NCBI GenBank assembly: GCA_963695095.1
Contig: CAVOFT010000001.1
Span: 3,424,001-3,488,000, forward strand
Length of the DNA stretch: 64,000 bases
DNA from: an uncultured bacterium
GTDB lineage: Bacteria; Krumholzibacteriota; Krumholzibacteriia; JACNKJ01
Direction: 5' to 3'
Shown piece after piece: positions 1,533 through 13,117 of the stretch. The stretch's first letter is position 1; the number at the start of each line of letters is the position of its first letter. The notes under the pieces were generated by a model, which searched no databases, was not told the origin of the DNA, and saw nothing but the letters and a program-made list of their open reading frames with translations. The translations under genes and the position numbers were made by a program.

Positions 1533-2234
1533 CTACCAGGGGTTGGTTGCGAAGACGGAGAACTCTGGAATGAAGCCGCGATCGTCGATCTCCAGGGCGC
1601 CGACGACGGCATCGGCGATCTCCTGCGGGCGCAGCTTCTTGTCGCTCAGCTCCTGGCTGCGCCCGAGCTTGGCGAAGAAGGCCGTCTGCACTTCGCTCGG
1701 ATTGACCTGCGTGACGCGGATGTTGTAGGTCCTCAGCTCCGCGCGCCAGCTCTCGCTCATGCCGCGCAGGGCGAACTTCGATCCCGAGTAGGCCGTGGCG
1801 AACTTGCCGCCGGCGAGCCCCGAGGTCGAACCGATGTTGACGATGTGCCCCCGCTCCTGGTCGATGAAGTGCCGCGCCGCCTCGCGCGCCATCAGCATGG
1901 CACCGGTCACGTTCGTGCGGAAGACGGCCTCGAACTTCTCGGTGGTCATGTCCACCAGCGAGAGGAAGTGCCCGAAGCCCGCGTTGTTGACGAGGATGTC
2001 CAGCCCACCCAGCCCCTCGATGGCGGCCGCGGTGACGCGCACGGCGTCCGCTTCGACGCCGACGTCGCCCGGCAGGCCGAGCACGCCCAGGGACTCCGCC
2101 GCCGCCTGCAGCTTCTTGTCGCTGCGGCCCATGATCGCCACCTGGGCGCCTTTGGCGACCAGGGCCTCGGCGATCGCATAGCCGATTCCTTCGCTGCCCC
2201 CGGTGACCAGGGCGCGCGCATCCTTCAGGTTCAT
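1533..2234 (-). CDS. Short-chain dehydrogenase/reductase (SDR)
   Basis: TGGSEGIG, NNAG and catalytic YSGSK motifs; GAGG RBS. Confidence 0.93.
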   Translation of the reverse strand: MNLKDARALVTGGSEGIGYAIAEALVAKGAQVAIMGRSDKKLQAAAESLGVLGLPGDVGVEADAVRVTAAAIEGLGGLDILVNNAGFGHFLSLVDMTTEKFEAVFRTNVTGAMLMAREAARHFIDQERGHIVNIGSTSGLAGGKFATAYSGSKFALRGMSESWRAELRTYNIRVTQVNPSEVQTAFFAKLGRSQELSDKKLRPQEIADAVVGALEIDDRGFIPEFSVFATNPW

Positions 2235-2263: not shown

Positions 2264-4405
2264 CTACCGGACGAGCACGAGCTTGCGCAGGGCCAGCGTT
2301 CGTCCCCCCGCGCTCAGGCGCGCCAGGTAGAGGCCCGAGGCCAGGGGCCGGCCGGCGGCGTCCCGGGCCGTCCAGTCGGCGCGCTGCTCGCCCGCTGCCT
2401 GCCGACCCGCCCTCAGTGTTGACTGAAGGCGGCCGCGGATGTCCAGGATTTCCAGCCGCACGATGGCGCTTTCGGCCAGGTGGTAAACCAGGGTCGCGTG
2501 TCCGTTGACCGGATTCGGATAGGCCGCCAGGCCGAACCTGCCCGGCGGCGCGGTCGCTACGGCGGTCAGGCTCCCATCGCCCTCATAGCAGCCCAGGTCG
2601 AGCCGGCCGCCGATCAGGCGCGGGCGGCCGGCGAGATCCAGTAGAGGCAGCGCGAGCCCCGTGGTGTCGGGCGGTCCCGCATCCACGCAGGGCGAACCGG
2701 GCCCCAGCGCCCAGGGATGCTCGCCCTCGCCAAGAACCCAGGGATCGGCGCTGAAGTTGCCCTCGCCGCCGTGGGCGGTCTGGATGTCGTTGTAGCGCAC
2801 GTAGAAGGGCTTCGTGTTGATCAGCGCCGTCGCTTCGAAGTAGTTGAAGCTGTTCGCCCAGACCAGGCAGCCCGTGAGCTGGGGGCGGGCGATCATCGCC
2901 ACCAGCGTCGCGGCGCGATCGACGATCTGGGGATTGTGGTCCACGTTGGCCACCACCGTCGAGGCCACGAGGCGCGGCATCGCCTCCAGGCAATAGAGCG
3001 CGCCCCCCGCCACGAAGGCGTGATTCGCTTCGAGCAGGCAGCCGACCACCTGCGGCTGGGCGTAGTGCGAGCAGTAGAGCGCGCCGCCGTAGTCCGCCGC
3101 GTTCTCGCGCAGGATGCAGTTCTCCACTCGATGATCGCCGCCGCCGGCAAAGCTCAGCGCGCCGCCGGGAGCGCCGGGGCCCAGACCCTTCGCGTGCTCG
3201 ATGACGCAATAGGCAAGCTGCGAGGGGCCCTGATCGGCCGGCGGAAAGGGAAAACGCAGGCCGGCCCAGGCGCCGGCCGTGCTGGAGTCCGGCGCGAAGC
3301 GCCAGGGCTGGGCGCTGTCGAAGTGGATGCGCCGGGCGGGCTCGCCCTGGGCAAGGAGCCGCCCCAGCACCGTGAGCGCGTGGAAGCCCGCGAATTCCAC
3401 GCGCACGCCGGGCATCACGCGCAGGGTGGCGCCCGCGGGCACGAGGACCTCGGCCGTCACGCGCACGGTGTCGGCATCCCAGACCGTCTCGCTCCTCACC
3501 GGAAGCGCTCCGCCCACGCAGACGAGACCCGGGCGCCCTGCGGCCGGCGCCGGATGCGCAGCCGGCGGTACCGGAGCGCCGGGCTGCGGGCCGGGGAAGC
3601 TCAGGCAGCCATAGCCCGCCGCGGGCGAGCCCGGCTGCAGGCGGAAGTCGCCGTGCTCGGGATCGACGAGCAGGGGATCCGTGCCGATGCGATTGTCGTG
3701 GGGCGCTTGCCCGGCAGCCTGCCAGGCGTAAGGCTCGAATCAGCCGTACTCTCACAGAAAGCCGAAATGCAGCAGCGGATCGCCGTTCTCTCGCGGATTG
3801 CTGCGAAAGCTCCAGTTCTCGTGCACCGTGGCGGTCCCCGCCAGGCTGAGCGCGACGTTCAAACCGGTCTGCAGCCACTCCATCGGATAGCCGTTGTCGA
3901 AGACCCAATCGGGGCCGGTCGCCAGCGCGTCGACGATGAGGTTGCGCTCGACGAGCAGCCCGTCACCCGTGCGCTGCAGGCGCAGGGCATAGTCGTGGGG
4001 CCGATAGAAGGTCACCTGCCGCACGGAGCCGCGCGGCTGGCGGTCCACCTCGTAATCGAGGCCCCGATAGCGCAGGGAGCCGCCGATGATCACGCAATCC
4101 TCGACGTCCAGGCGGTTCGGGCAGTAGGAGATGCTGAGCTGGCTGCCGGCCAGGTCCAGCACGGCGCCATTGCCCAGGATCTTCACGTCCAGGCCCGCCT
4201 CGCCGGAGTAGCTCGTGCTCTCGGGGATCAGGATCGGTCCGATCTGCAGGCCGCCCGTGTAAACGACCCCGGGCTCCAGGATGAGCAGCTTGTCGTAGCC
4301 TGCGCCCGGTGACGCGGCGTCGAAGGCGGCGCGCAGGGTGCCGGCGGCGGCAGTGGCGGCCGCGCCCAGGAGGAGGGCAAGGCTGAACGCGAGCAGGCGA
4401 GTCAT
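2264..4405 (-). CDS. Secreted right-handed beta-helix protein with C-terminal FlgD-Ig/T9SS-like domain, containing two in-frame TGA codons (candidate selenoprotein, 713 aa)
   Basis: Track ORFs 3752..4405 (signal peptide MTRLLAFSLALLLGAAATAAAG) and 2264..3517 are in the same frame. They are separated only by TGA 3752-3754 and TGA 3740-3742. The intervening sequence encodes DPLLVDPEHGDFRLQPGSP. The C-terminus has YPNPVN...LASGLYLARL. Confidence 0.7.
3709..3727 (-). promoter_or_regulatory. Candidate bacterial SECIS hairpin
   Basis: GCCUGGCA-GGC-UGCCGGGC: 8-bp stem with one U-G pair and a G-rich apical loop, 20 nt after the second UGA and 32 nt after the first. Confidence 0.55.
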
Positions 4406-5486: not shown

Positions 5487-6527
5487 CTAGAAGAGTCGAT
5501 AGTTGAAGCCCAGCGACAGGGTCTGCTTGAACTGCCCCGCCTTGCGCACGGCGGCGCCGACGGCGCCCGCGTTGAGCAATTCGCCCCCCTCGCCCAGCTC
5601 GGGCTTCACGCTGTTGTCGTACTTGTCGTAGGCCCAGCGCAGGTAGAGGTTCACGACGATGTGCTTGGTGATCGCCGCCGTGAAGATGTTCTCCCAGTCG
5701 ATGTCCAGCGCGGTGCTGAAGTCGGCGAGATCGGGATCCAGGCCGGCAAGGGCAAGGTCGGCATCCGTCAGGTCGCTCTTACCCGAGAAGAAGAGGGGCT
5801 GGTAGAAGCCGAGCTTGGCCGTCCAGGCCACCCTGTCCTCCAGGATGCGCGTCTTGTAGTCGGTGATCAGCTCCAGGCCGCCGTCGGTGGTGCCGTCGGC
5901 GCTGGTCGCGTCGTCGAGGCCGTCGCTGGCATCCGTGTCCGTGTAGACGCTGCGGCGGCTCTGGCGCAGCGTGAAGCCCAGGCGGCTGAGCAGGCTGCGC
6001 TCCTCCTCGTTGATGAACTGGCGGGCGACACCCGCCGACTCCTTGAACTGCAGCGGATTGAGAAAGAGGCTGCGGCCGTGGGCGTCGCTCGCGTCCAGGA
6101 ACTGGCTCTCCATCCGCCCGGAGACGAAGGGATCGACGTAGCCGCCCAGCGTGAATCGCAGTGTGCTTTCCAGGTCGACGAGGTCCGTGGACTTCTCGGG
6201 CTTGTCCCAGTTGCGCTCGCCGGGCTGACCGCTCTGCTGATGCGTCTCGCCGAAGGCGAGCTTGAGCTGGCTCAGCCAGTTGACCTTCGGGCTCATCTGG
6301 CTCTCGAGGGCGCCGTTGAAGTTCCCGGTCCAGATCAGCGAGCCCTTGTCGCCGCCGCGCCAGTTGTCGCTGTAGGCGCTCTGCGTGACATTGAGGCCGA
6401 TCTCCGCGGACTTGTAGACCTTGCCCAGCTCGAGCACCCGCTCCTTGCCTTCCGCAGCGAGGGCGCTCGACGCCGCCAGCAGCAGCGCGAGCGCGGCAGT
6501 CCCCCGACCAGTGATGATCCTGCGCAT
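5487..6527 (-). CDS. DUF3078-like outer-membrane beta-barrel protein
   Basis: Signal peptide, [12 protein letters not shown] motif, C-terminal [25 protein letters not shown] before ATG 6527. Confidence 0.75.
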
Positions 6528-6778
6528 TGTCGTCCTCCTTGGTCCACTGCCCCGCCGCCCAGCATCCCGAGGCAAGCCGCAATCCGCGGCCGTCTTGTTT
6601 CTATGATGAAAACACCGGCCCCAGCGCCGCCGGTCGGGTCAATCTAGGCCCGAGACTCGGCCTGTCAAGGTCAGCCCGGCGGCGATGGTTGCTTTCCGGC
6701 TGCAGACTGCGTAGACTCCCGCCCGCTTTGCGGGTGACTATTACTTTCGAGCGATTGCAATCCCGAGGAGGGAGCCGA

Positions 6779-7177
6779 ATGAGCATGATGAGCGAGTTCA
6801 AGGCCTTCGCGATGAAGGGCAACGTGATGGACATGGCGGTGGGCATCATCATCGGCGGCGCCTTCGGCAAGATCGTCGCCTCCTTCGTCAGGGACGTGTT
6901 GATGCCCCCCATCGGCATGATGCTGGGCGGGGTCGACTTCACGAAGCTCGCCTTCACCATGAAGGCGGCCACCGCCGAGGTGCCGGCGGTGACGCTCAAC
7001 TACGGTACCTTCATTCAGGCGGTCGTCGACTTCCTCATCATCGCCTTCGCGGTCTTCATGATGGTCAAGCAGATGAACCGCTTGAAGAAGCAGGAGGAGG
7101 CCGCTCCGGCAGCGCCGCCCGCGCCCTCCAACGAAGAGGTCCTGCTCACGCAGATTCGCGACTTGCTGAAGAAGTAA
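6779..7177 (+). CDS. mscL: Large-conductance mechanosensitive channel
   Basis: [28 protein letters not shown]...LLTQIRDLL. Confidence 0.97.
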
Positions 7178-7274: not shown

Positions 7275-8780
<1,506 letters not shown>

Positions 8781-10250: not shown

Positions 10251-11927
10251 ATGGAGACCAAGAGCGCGGGTCGCCTCGGCGAAATCCTCCTCGCGGCCGG
10301 CTTGATCAGCCCCGAGCACCTCGAGCTGGCGTTGCGCGAACAGGGGCAGACCGGCGAGAAGCTGGGCGCCATCCTGCAGCGGCTGGGCGTGGTCACCGAG
10401 AAGGAGATCGCGCGCATCCTCGCCAGCCAGGCGGGCGTGCCCCACGTCTCCTTGCGCGAGGAGTGGATCCAGCGCGAGGCCGTGGACCTGATCCCGCCCA
10501 GCTTCGCCGAGCAGGAGCGGGTCTTCCCCATCACCATCCGCGGCAAGACCCTCGTGCTCGCGATGGCGAATCCCCTCGACCTCGAGTGCATCGACGCCGC
10601 CGGCCGGCTGACCGGACACTACATCGAGGTGGTCCATGCCACCGATAGCGACATCCAGGCGACGCTGCAGCAGTACTTCGGCAGCCGCAGCGACATCGAC
10701 GCCCGCATCGACCAGGCCCTGGCCTCGTCGCGGGCGAACCTCGCGGCCGGCGCTCGCGCCGCCGACGGCGACTCCCCCTTCGTGCGCCTGGTCGACCTGC
10801 TGCTGGGCAAGGCGGTCGAGCTGGGCGCCACCGACATCCATGTCGAGCCGGAGGAAAAGGTCATCCGTTGCCGCTACCGCATCGACGGCCGGCTGCGGCA
10901 AGGCCATTCGCTGCCCAAGGAGCTGCAGAGCGTCCTCATCACGCGCTTCAAGATCCTGGCCGGCATGAACATCTCCGAGGCGCGCGTGCCGCAGGACGGG
11001 CGCATCCTCTTCGAGCACGAGGGGCGCAAGATCGACCTGCGCGTGTCCTCCTTCCCCACCGTGCACGGCGAGACCTTCGTCGCCCGCCTGCTCGACAAGC
11101 AGAACCTGCTGGTCGGCATCCAGGGGCTCGGCATGAGCAAGAAGATGCTCCCGGCCTTCACGCGTGATCTGGCGCGGCCCAATGGCATCATCCTGGTAAC
11201 GGGGCCCACGGGCTCCGGCAAGACCACCACGCTCTACTCGGCGATGCAGCACCTCAACGCCCCCGACGTGAAGATGATCACCCTGGAGGACCCGGTCGAG
11301 TACGAGTTGCCCCTGATCAACCAGGGCCAGATCCAGACCGCCCAGGGCTTCACCTTCGCCCGCGGCCTGCGCGCGATCTTGCGCCAGGACCCGGACATCA
11401 TCCTGGTGGGCGAGATCCGCGATCAGGAGACGGCCAGCCTTGCGATTCGCGCGGCGCTGACGGGGCACCTCGTCTTCAGCACCCTGCATACGAATGACGC
11501 GGTGGGCGTCATCCCCCGCCTCGTCGACATGGGGGTGGAGCCCTATCTGCTCTCGGCCACCCTGGTCGCCGTGGTGGCCCAGCGCCTCGTGCGCGGCGTC
11601 TGCCCGGTCTGCCGCGTCAGCATCGAGCCCACGCCCGAGCAGCGCGAGCTGCTGGGCCTGGACGACGCGGCGCTCGCGGATGCCACCTTCACCGCCGGCA
11701 AGGGCTGCCCAAGCTGCAACGATTCCGGCTACAAGGGCCGTCTGGCCGTCTTCGAGTACCTGCAGGCGACCGAGCCGGTGCGCCGCATGATCGCCGAGCG
11801 CGCCCCCACGGACGCCATCGTGGCGGTGGCGCGTGAGCAGGGCATGCGCAGTCTGCGCGAGGACACCCTGGCCAAGGTGCTGCGCGGCAAGACCACGCTC
11901 GTCGAGATGATGCGGGTCGTGGCATGA
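10251..11927 (+). CDS. GspE/PilB/MshE assembly ATPase with N-terminal MshEN domain
   Basis: RLGEILLAAGLISPEHLELALREQ, Walker A GPTGSGKT, EDPVEY, LRQDPDIILVGEIRD, CxxC zinc motifs. Confidence 0.95.
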   Translation: METKSAGRLGEILLAAGLISPEHLELALREQGQTGEKLGAILQRLGVVTEKEIARILASQAGVPHVSLREEWIQREAVDLIPPSFAEQERVFPITIRGKTLVLAMANPLDLECIDAAGRLTGHYIEVVHATDSDIQATLQQYFGSRSDIDARIDQALASSRANLAAGARAADGDSPFVRLVDLLLGKAVELGATDIHVEPEEKVIRCRYRIDGRLRQGHSLPKELQSVLITRFKILAGMNISEARVPQDGRILFEHEGRKIDLRVSSFPTVHGETFVARLLDKQNLLVGIQGLGMSKKMLPAFTRDLARPNGIILVTGPTGSGKTTTLYSAMQHLNAPDVKMITLEDPVEYELPLINQGQIQTAQGFTFARGLRAILRQDPDIILVGEIRDQETASLAIRAALTGHLVFSTLHTNDAVGVIPRLVDMGVEPYLLSATLVAVVAQRLVRGVCPVCRVSIEPTPEQRELLGLDDAALADATFTAGKGCPSCNDSGYKGRLAVFEYLQATEPVRRMIAERAPTDAIVAVAREQGMRSLREDTLAKVLRGKTTLVEMMRVVA

Positions 11928-13117
11928 AGGAGTTCCGCTATCGAGCGCTCAGCGCGAGCGGCGAGACGGTGACGGGCATGCGTCAGGCTGCCAACGTGGC
12001 GGCGCTGGCCCGCGACCTCACTGCCCAGAACATGATCCTGATCGATGGGCGGCCCTCCCTGCGCCTGTTCGGCGGCGGCCGCGTGCGACGCCGCGATCTG
12101 CTCGATTTCACGCTGCACATGGCCACCTCGCTGGGAGCGGGCATCCCCGTCATCCAGGCTCTGCGCGACGCCGAGGCGGGCATGGCCGGCCAGGGTTTCG
12201 CGCGCGTGATCAAGGACCTGCGCGAGGAGATCAGCAGCGGCAGCCAGGTGGCCGAGGCGATGAGCCACCACCCGGACGTGTTCCCCCAGCTCTACCTGGC
12301 CCTCATCTCGGCCGGCGAGAGCTCGGGCAACCTGGACGGCACGCTCGCCGAGCTGGTGCGCTATCTCGAGTGGGCCGACGACCTGGAAGGCAAGGTGAAG
12401 CAGGCCCTGATCTACCCGGCGATCCTGGCCACGGCGACGCTGGGGCTATTCCTGCTCATGATCATCTTCGTTATTCCACGCTTCATGGAGGTCTTCCAGG
12501 AGCTGGACTACCAGCTGCCCACGCTCACCCTGCGCGTGCTGGCCACGGGCGCCTTCTTTCGCCATTGGTGGCCCTTCCTGTTCGGCGGCGTGGCGGCTCT
12601 CGTCACCGGGCTGCGCATGCTCGCCCGCAGCGAGCGCGGCCGCCTGGCGCTGGATCACCTGCTGCTCAATCTGCCCATCGTCGGCGGCTTCCAGCGCAAC
12701 CTGGCGCTGTCTCGCTTCGCGCGCAACTTCGCCATGCTCTTCGCTTCCGGCATCGACATCCTGCGCGTGCTCGCCCTGCTCGAGCGCGTGGTCGGCAACA
12801 GCGTGCTCGCCGCGGAGATCGCCACTGCGCGCCAGCGCGTGGTGACCGGCGACACCCTGTCTCGCGCCTTCGCCGACAGTCCCTACTTTCCGCCCTTGCT
12901 CAAGCGCCTGATCGGGGTCGGCGAGCAAGCCGGCAGCCTGGACAAGACACTGGCCAAGGCCGCCGAGTACCTGGACAAGGAGCTGCCGCGCGCGATCAAG
13001 CGCCTGTTCACCCTGCTCGAGGCGGCGATCATCGTCGTGCTCGGCGCGCTGATCGCGATCAGCGCGCTGGCGATGCTCCTGCCCATCTTCCAGATCCAGG
13101 GGCAGTTGATGAAATGA
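11924..13117 (+). CDS. GspF/PilC platform protein
   Basis: AGESSGNLD, ALIYP, VGEQAGSLD; 3 TM helices; ATGA coupling. Confidence 0.93.
   Translation: MKEFRYRALSASGETVTGMRQAANVAALARDLTAQNMILIDGRPSLRLFGGGRVRRRDLLDFTLHMATSLGAGIPVIQALRDAEAGMAGQGFARVIKDLREEISSGSQVAEAMSHHPDVFPQLYLALISAGESSGNLDGTLAELVRYLEWADDLEGKVKQALIYPAILATATLGLFLLMIIFVIPRFMEVFQELDYQLPTLTLRVLATGAFFRHWWPFLFGGVAALVTGLRMLARSERGRLALDHLLLNLPIVGGFQRNLALSRFARNFAMLFASGIDILRVLALLERVVGNSVLAAEIATARQRVVTGDTLSRAFADSPYFPPLLKRLIGVGEQAGSLDKTLAKAAEYLDKELPRAIKRLFTLLEAAIIVVLGALIAISALAMLLPIFQIQGQLMK

Follow-up and report, generated by a model that had tools for sequence, protein, structure and literature searches.

A candidate selenoprotein family built on an exported beta-helix protein, with paired or single in-frame UGA codons, in Krumholzibacteriota and other bacteria

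When an otherwise open frame contains two stop codons at a distance of four codons, are these the ends of genes, the scars of mutation, or codons for selenocysteine (Sec)? The question is raised by a locus in an uncultured bacterium of the GTDB lineage Krumholzibacteriota (GenBank assembly GCA_963695095.1, contig CAVOFT010000001.1, positions 3,424,001 to 3,488,000), whose source genome comprises 3.64 Mb in 2 contigs and is 93.5% complete with 70% G+C. This whole stretch of 64,000 nucleotides (nt) is called the window here. On its minus strand, a frame of 713 codons runs from an ATG at 4405 to a TAG at 2264-2266, and its sole interruptions are TGA at codons 218 (site 1, UGA1) and 222 (site 2, UGA2). 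With TGA translated as U, the protein reads ...HFGFL-U-EYG-U-FEPYAW... at this point. Translation table 11 gives two open reading frames (ORFs) instead, the upstream one ending at 3752 and the downstream one beginning with the GTG at 3517. Retranslation of the window bore out the original prediction that the two pieces belong to one frame broken by these TGA codons only. It also recovered the 74 stop-free codons between the second TGA and that GTG, which include DPLLVDPEHGDFRLQPGSP, recurring later as DPWVLGEGEHPWALGPGSP. The gene is present in a single copy in the source genome. We conclude that it is very likely a selenoprotein gene read through both UGA codons. Judged from sequence, the two ORFs are one gene whose TGA codons are conserved and alternate with Cys codons, and the Sec machinery, a hairpin resembling a Sec insertion sequence (SECIS), a predicted export signal and a type IX secretion system (T9SS) tail are all present.

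The first line of evidence is the persistence of the two codons in related genomes. Seven of 40 such genomes hold strong orthologues in a six-frame search (50-75% identity), one of them in two copies. Two TGA codons are read through in G001, G007, G008 and both copies in G003, and one in G004, G009 and G011. The motif is U-EYG-U in the source genome (G000), in G001, G007 and G008, and in one G003 copy (G003a); it is U-PYG-U in the other (G003b) and C-DYG-U in the three single-TGA orthologues. All of these sequences, that of the source genome included, continue in frame for about 490 more codons past the motif and terminate at TAG (6), TAA (2) or TGA (1), the last being the terminator of the G007 orthologue.

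The same pattern extends well beyond the phylum. A pattern scan with the N-terminal domain, using one genome per species, gave 130 relatives, of which the best 80 loci were used for counting. These carry the labels Candidatus Eisenbacteria, Cloacimonadota, Planctomycetota/Phycisphaerales, Fibrobacteraceae, Krumholzibacteriia, Bacteroidia, Gemmatimonadetes and Acidobacteriota. At site 2, 79 of the 80 have TGA and one has TGC (L094/P0006); at site 1, 70 have TGC or TGT and 10 have TGA. The resulting combinations are Cys-Sec in 69 loci, Sec-Sec in 10 and Cys-Cys in one. No further stop occurs within 256 codons around the motif in any of 80 segments examined (79 of the best 80 loci plus L014, one locus that runs off its contig being skipped). 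Because TGA or Cys codons recur at both positions in homologues of many species, at 45-79% protein identity, the two positions stand far beyond chance. Aligned homologues thus have TGA or Cys, never Arg or another residue, with homology on both sides, a single database protein with Trp at both sites apart.

The double-Sec form is concentrated nearer to the window. In an even sample of 201 genomes of its phylum, the family was found in 36, including 7 of 11 genomes from the source organism's own taxonomic family and 28 of 87 from one sister family; it was not found in any other family searched in that sample. Matches in this sample that extend over the motif number 37; two TGA codons are read through in 29 of them and one in 8. 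All 20 sister-family loci that were retrieved carry TGA at site 1 and at site 2, and their motif is U-x-Y-G-U in 8 and U-E-Y-S-U in 12; in the latter (L122 and L124-L134), Ser replaces Gly before the second Sec position. The predicted UxxxU motif therefore describes the window's phylum, where the double-Sec form is the commoner one, but across all phyla the single-Sec C-x-Y-G-U is commoner.

Site 1 appears to have switched between Cys and Sec repeatedly. On a maximum-likelihood tree of 81 N-terminal domains, computed without the motif columns, the double-Sec state requires 7 changes, at least 2 of which are forced by branches with Shimodaira-Hasegawa-like approximate likelihood ratio (SH-aLRT) support of 95 or more. 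The window sequence and three other double-Sec sequences form a clade with full support. We infer that switches at site 1 are cheap and recurrent because a single base separates TGA from TGC or TGT and a SECIS for site 2 is already present within range.

The hairpin GCCUGGCA-GGC-UGCCGGGC lies downstream of the TGA codons where it had been predicted. Its energy is -13.1 kcal/mol, and its loop lies 20 nt from UGA2 and 32 nt from UGA1. The bacterial SECIS (bSECIS) model of Zhang and Gladyshev, as summarised in a 2026 review of prokaryotic selenoproteomes (PMC13188914), specifies an apical loop of 3-9 nt, an upper stem 4-16 bp long, G within the first two positions of the loop, a distance of 16-37 nt from UGA to loop and a minimum free energy of -7.5 kcal/mol or lower. 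The window hairpin satisfies all four criteria of this model for both UGA codons. For the suggestion that one SECIS may serve both UGA codons, the spacing part thus holds, and the sharing itself is our proposal. In a strict scan that accepted perfect stems only, a conforming hairpin lies behind UGA2 in 45 of 82 family members, compared to 7.7% (1984/25866) of other in-frame codons of the same genes; at -10 kcal/mol or lower, the figures are 30 of 82 and 3.0%.

At least three hairpin placements or types, A to C, occur in different lineages of the family. Type A is that of the window (66 sequences, aligned without gaps); its helix is 78.6% paired, compared to 27-49% when the partner strand is slid, and its commonest loop is GGA. 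Three of its pairs show two-sided changes, and its covariation of 0.205 was matched by none of 500 shuffles. Type B, GCCGGUUCGGC, lies downstream of that position by about 8 nt, in sequences labelled Planctomycetota and in those of the sister family, and is 58% paired over a mixed alignment. Type C, in Cloacimonadota-labelled sequences, has a conserved AGUUG loop and is 92.7% paired, against 26-48% when slid; its covariation of 0.506 compares to 0.231 in shuffles and was likewise matched by none of 500. The selD gene of the source genome carries a hairpin, GGGUCC-GGA-GGACCU, that begins 11 nt after the selD UGA and has a GC-rich stem of 6 bp and a GGA triloop. It is of the same build as type A.

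The source genome has the Sec machinery on which the original prediction depended. Profile searches found selA (429.8 bits), selB (336.8 bits, or 362 when a C-terminal piece is added) and selD (342.4 bits, with 1 in-frame TGA), and ARAGORN found a tRNA-Sec with anticodon tca. The selD gene (G000:C1:69142-70107) is itself a selenoprotein gene, reading ...SAGG-U-SAKMGPEDL.... SelA also scored over its curated cut-off in all 15 further genomes tested, 11 of which carry the family: six from the window's taxonomic family and five others labelled Cloacimonadota (two, one of them Cys/Cys), Planctomycetaceae, Bacteroidia and Krumholzibacteriia. The remaining four are members of the window's taxonomic family that lack the protein family, and selA is present in them as well; the selA test therefore does not discriminate within that taxonomic family. 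No formate dehydrogenase alpha subunit (FdhA) in the source genome reaches the TIGR01553 cut-off (best 57 bits), so the Sec trait must depend here on other selenoproteins.

The two codons fall within the N-terminal domain of the predicted protein. An AlphaFold model of residues 22-277, built from 81 sequences, is a right-handed parallel beta-helix with a predicted local distance difference test score (pLDDT) of 95.4 and a predicted TM-score of 0.92, and the 55 residues past TGA2 are modelled at a pLDDT above 95. With VIA-align, its best match is the PL6 alginate lyase 7dmk_A (Z 14.0, root-mean-square deviation 3.1, 187 aligned residues), and 90 chains reach Z >= 8, among them pectate lyases and phage tailspikes (Z 10-12.6) and NosD 7o0y_A (Z 11.0). 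Foldseek gave no match to this domain in the PDB at E <= 0.001, the best being weak (E 0.04). The Sec pair is located in an irregular segment that directly follows the final strand of the helix, at the C-terminal end of the domain, where the loop consensus is H-x3-L-(C/U)-x-Y-(G/S)-U-x-x-P and a further Cys, C267, would lie next to the loop. In the 81-sequence alignment H213, Y220, G221, P225 and C267 are invariant and L217 is nearly so; W228 is also listed as invariant. Pfam and NCBIfam 20.0 have nothing on residues 1-290 at E <= 1 apart from one 16-bit match at chance level.

The remainder of the protein points to export. Residues ~1-21 look by eye like a signal peptide of the Sec export pathway, and homologues align only from residue ~22 onward. 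A full-length model from 10 sequences (mean pLDDT 70.7) served for rough domain borders only; it places strands over model residues 274-509, mostly at a pLDDT of 80-92, and a beta-sandwich at the C-terminus. The FlgD-Ig/T9SS-like tail described in the original prediction was recovered as matches over cut-off to TIGR04183 and to the Pfam family FlgD_ig (PF13860, 27.7 bits, cut-off 27), with PF18962 at 19.6, under its cut-off of 27. The T9SS translocon protein SprA (TIGR04189), the only T9SS component searched for, is found in the source genome in one frame at 423.7 bits. Planctomycetota-labelled homologues carry other, dockerin-like tails, and the family looks like one of surface or secreted proteins whatever the export route.

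Taken together, these features suggest how the gene would be expressed. UGA codons 218 and 222 would be decoded as Sec by the genome's own SelA, SelB, SelD and tRNA-Sec. The hairpin 12 nt behind UGA2 may recruit SelB with Sec-tRNA at UGA1 and again four codons on, so that one hairpin would serve both codons. The signal peptide would take the protein across the inner membrane, unfolded, via the Sec export pathway, and the type A sorting domain would pass it to the T9SS, leaving it on or outside the cell surface. The gene would thus belong to a new family of bacterial selenoproteins, very probably one that relies on the standard SECIS mechanism, which is unusual in its fold, its location and its recurrent Cys-Sec switching.

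Several observations weigh against this reading. Selenium insertion, the efficiency of read-through and export are all things that we infer. The hairpin overlaps conserved codons (W-x-x-A-G), and its pairing may partly be a by-product of protein conservation; the shuffle control leaves the relatedness of the sequences in place. The strict perfect-stem scan was passed only by the 45 of 82 members mentioned above, and 9 of the 20 double-TGA sister-family loci had no hairpin in a strict scan from UGA1 with spacing to 50 nt. The GCCGGUUCGGC hairpin that is visible in the sister family lies ~28 nt from UGA2 and ~40 nt from UGA1, the latter beyond the 16-37 nt of the model. A 71-nt region around the window hairpin folds no better than shuffles (z = -0.93); the hairpin is judged by position and comparison, not by energy alone. 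An Rfam scan of 3600-3850 gave chance-level matches to CRISPR repeats and no SECIS family. The full-length model falls below a pLDDT of 50 at residues 197-271, which include the motif, a region in which the 81-sequence domain model is confident. Finally, the genomic context yields no functional clue; a neighbouring dehydrogenase gene is shared with the closest relatives only.

Two further ideas about the hairpins were dropped. One was that the double-Sec form is restricted to lineages with a hairpin near UGA2, which was rejected since the sister family combines a double TGA with the more distant hairpin just described. The other was that a GGCU-GAUUCG-AGCC hairpin, with UGA2 in its loop, is a separate SECIS for UGA1; it was set aside since its loop is only ~11 nt from UGA1 and its pairing also follows from Gly and Glu-Pro codons.

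Among the alternatives, the one that fares best, though we consider it improbable, is that only UGA2 is efficiently decoded as Sec. UGA1 would then be poorly decoded, read by a near-cognate tRNA (Cys or Trp), or act as a regulatory or attenuating stop. The prevalence of Cys at site 1, in 70 of the 80 loci taken over all phyla, is in keeping with this idea, as are the sister-family hairpin ~40 nt from UGA1 and the 9 of 20 loci without a strict hairpin. Yet TGA at site 1 is held in a well-supported clade that has diverged to ~63% identity, as well as in several separate lineages, and it occurs in the 29 of 37 phylum matches noted above. A codon at which translation mostly stopped, with 70% of a conserved protein still to come, would not be expected to persist. 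In the window itself, the 32 nt from UGA1 to the loop lie inside the model, and families with two close Sec residues (UxxU, UxxxxU) are already catalogued (PMC13188914).

That table 11 yields two ORFs, and that public gene callers report them separately, could also mean that there are two genes: one for a secreted N-terminal protein that ends at the TGA and another, with a start of its own, for the downstream protein. A HMMER scan of 1.84 billion representative proteins found many of ~470-510 residues that start at residue 223, directly after TGA2 (P0011, P0015, P0017, P0060, P0062, P0074, P0077 and P0081), together with full-length P0006, which has Cys at both sites, and P0028, which has Trp at both. 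In 5.8 billion clusters, a profile search for the N-terminal domain detected 388 proteins (140-448 residues, E <= 1e-10). Among the best 120 of these (200-267 residues), 119 have C-x-Y-G or C-x-Y-S/A as their last residues and stop exactly at the residue that precedes site 2, and one ends at site 1. The names, where given, are "hypothetical protein" or "right-handed parallel beta-helix repeat-containing protein". Longer matching proteins, among the best 8000 candidates that share words with the family, are P0006 and P0272 (both Cys/Cys) and P0028. The family is thus abundant in databases but cut at the Sec codon.

Full-length Cys/Cys homologues, N-terminal fragments that stop exactly at the Sec codon and a domain model that takes in the 55 residues past TGA2 all speak against independent starts. 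Homology is continuous over the TGA codons, the invariant P225, W228 and C267 precede any start codon of the downstream ORF, the N-domain model needs residues past UGA2, and the downstream piece has a sorting tail and no signal peptide. We therefore regard two separate genes as highly improbable and retain a single gene read through both UGA codons.

Two stops at so short a distance in an otherwise open frame could also have arisen by two nonsense mutations in a pseudogene or by an error of assembly. No public sequencing run contained more than 12% of the sampled words of positions 3300-4400, and contigs from four runs were compared; these are short and of low depth and show the presence of the TGA codons, neither expression level nor habitat. 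A 244-nt contig (X1) of wetland metagenome DNA spans both TGA sites unchanged, with 8 differences from the window and 2 compensating indels. The contig is ~96% identical to the window, and its indels, an insertion of one base and a deletion of one base six bases apart at 3549-3555, fall in a Pro/Ala-rich linker and keep the frame. An estuary RNA library yielded a contig of 151 nt that matches 3605-3745 without a difference, UGA2 and the hairpin included, and is only a faint hint of transcription. Because independent contigs from other studies keep the TGA codons, an assembly artefact is excluded. Dozens of species share TGA at these codons and lack any other stop, and the sites alternate with Cys codons only, so that we give this explanation next to no credence.

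Equally small is the chance that TGA stands for a standard amino acid in this organism (code 4 or 25), as the Trp at both sites of the database homologue P0028 might imply: TGA is the commonest stop of the source genome, closing 1197 of 2166 open frames of at least 500 codons and 4 of 8 neighbouring genes, and the code is therefore standard; the G007 orthologue itself terminates in TGA, a tRNA-Sec is present, the only tRNA-Trp found has anticodon cca, and the genome is rich in G+C (70%). P0028 (705 aa) reads L-W-EYG-W and comes from a low-complexity, apparently low-GC contig, and its Trp residues are probably TGA codons translated under code 4 by the source pipeline.

If both UGA codons are decoded as Sec, the chemistry of the (C/U)-x3-U pair becomes the next question. 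We tentatively favor a redox-active selenylsulfide or diselenide. It is also possible, if rather doubtful, that the pair binds soft metals or chalcogens on an extracellular scaffold formed by the beta-helix, and other roles make up the remaining probability. His213 and Cys267 may be partners of the Sec pair. In its widest form, our proposal is an undescribed family of extracellular selenoproteins with a wide distribution, which would be the first to use a right-handed beta-helix scaffold and the first T9SS cargo to contain Sec. Outside the cells of anaerobic sediment and digester bacteria, its loop would form a selenylsulfide or diselenide and carry out redox or metal/chalcogen chemistry. The family would flip freely between Cys and Sec at site 1 as the SECIS of site 2 is already within range, and, together with SelD, perhaps help to keep the Sec trait alive in these phyla. 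We give this proposal as a whole an even chance of being right.

Recognition of the family has an immediate consequence for annotation, as hundreds of database entries (the 388 N-terminal clusters and many C-terminal fragments) are truncated halves of one protein. It repairs annotation under at least six phylum-level labels (Eisenbacteria, Krumholzibacteriia, Cloacimonadota, Planctomycetota, Fibrobacterota and Bacteroidota), and single metagenome-assembled genomes labelled Gemmatimonadota and Acidobacteriota also carry the family. A surface or secreted beta-helix with one or two Sec residues, if true, would widen the places and scaffolds of selenium chemistry. Cys-Sec, Sec-Sec and Cys-Cys versions of one loop, combined with at least three SECIS placements, amount to a natural experiment that bears on the benefit of Sec over Cys, the reach of a SECIS and the use of one element for two UGA codons four codons apart. 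The features of the gene are collected in Table 1.

Table 1. Features of the candidate selenoprotein gene (positions in the window)
Feature	Position	Strand	Description
Putative selenoprotein gene, complete	2264..4405	-	713 codons + TAG; two in-frame UGA (predicted Sec); orthologues read through 1-2 TGA
UGA1, codon 218	3752..3754	-	Predicted Sec here; Cys in most homologues of other phyla
UGA2, codon 222	3740..3742	-	Conserved predicted Sec of the family
SECIS-like hairpin GCCUGGCA-GGC-UGCCGGGC	3709..3727	-	8-bp stem, GGC loop, 12 nt past UGA2
Putative N-terminal Sec-type signal peptide, residues ~1-21, MTRLLAFSLALLLGAAATAAA	4343..4405	-	By eye: hydrophobic core, then Ala-rich stretch
N-terminal right-handed parallel beta-helix domain (model), residues 22-277	3575..4342	-	Carries the Sec loop, spans both UGAs
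Second beta-helix domain (full-length model), residues ~294-529	2819..3526	-	Beta-helix repeat proteins match by thousands
Choice-of-anchor Q domain, residues 566-608	2582..2710	-	NCBIfam NF041518, 28.3 bits (cut-off 25)
T9SS type A sorting domain, Ig-like beta-sandwich, residues 629-710	2276..2521	-	TIGR04183, 26.2 bits (cut-off 23)

Around the gene, a short-chain dehydrogenase (SDR) gene (window 1533-2234, minus strand) begins 29 nt past the selenoprotein stop on the same strand and may be co-transcribed with it. The neighbourhoods of 8 orthologues have no conserved partner, and the SDR arrangement recurs in G008 only, not in the other five relatives examined. Further neighbours found by scan are an OmpA-family protein with thrombospondin type 3 repeats (7275-8780, plus strand) and MscL (6527-7177, plus strand). 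The ORFs at 10251-11927 and 11924-13117 (plus strand) look, by eye from their translations, like ATPase and platform genes of type II secretion or type IV pili. Elsewhere in the genome, ARAGORN reported three unusual tRNAs: one with a four-base anticodon (gcat; G000:C1:736525-736612), a 98-nt tRNA-Met (2368409-2368506) and an 86-nt tRNA-Thr(tgt) (3489346-3489431), the last ~1.3 kb beyond the window end.

Comparison with known selenoproteins places the family outside those described. The 119 families and subfamilies in Table 1 of the 2026 review include no beta-helix protein, no T9SS cargo and no Cx3U or Ux3U family, and most characterised selenoproteins have a thioredoxin-like fold (PMC13188914). 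The claim that the fold and motif belong to no known selenoprotein family agrees with this table, with Pfam and NCBIfam, and with a full-text literature search in which no such family was described; paper supplements and the BSepDB database were outside its scope and may hold an automated prediction. In the parts consulted of the 2026 review, the deep-Sep paper and the BSepDB paper, no mention was found of secretion, of a beta-helix or of Cloacimonadota.

The nearest parallels in location are the TonB-dependent receptor of the FCYXU type (NF049945, CxxU) and the UshA-like proteins (NF041198, CxU; NF049981, CxxU). These are also envelope or exported proteins with a Cys a few residues before Sec and an adjacent aromatic residue, and, like the window gene, they have an in-frame UGA with a downstream SECIS (PMC13188914). 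They differ in fold, being beta-barrel receptors and nucleotidases, and in having CxxU or CxU in place of Cx3U. None of the three models matched in an NCBIfam scan of the whole window protein at E <= 1, and no T9SS cargo appears among these families in those parts of PMC13188914 that describe them. In the closeness of the two UGA codons, the window gene resembles the Prx-like UxxU, metal-binding NF041115 UxxU, FmdB-family UxxU and TsoB NF045694 UxxxxU families (PMC13188914), which presumably share one downstream SECIS each. It differs from them in its Ux3U spacing, its fold, its cellular location and the repeated Cys/Sec switching at site 1.

The hairpin is built like the bSECIS consensus and the genome's own selD SECIS; at the same time, the family has its three or more hairpin positions and types, no Rfam match, and an only predicted binding of SelB. 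With right-handed beta-helix proteins (7dmk_A, pectate lyases, tailspikes and NosD), the N-terminal domain shares its fold at 7-17% identity, and some database fragments of the family carry PF13229. None of these beta-helix proteins is entered as a selenoprotein in PMC13188914, and a shared fold does not show a shared function. No selenoprotein was reported as T9SS cargo in the literature searched. The window protein is like type A cargo of that system in its Ig-like sorting domain, which scores over its NCBIfam cut-off, and the putative signal peptide seen by eye would fit such cargo.

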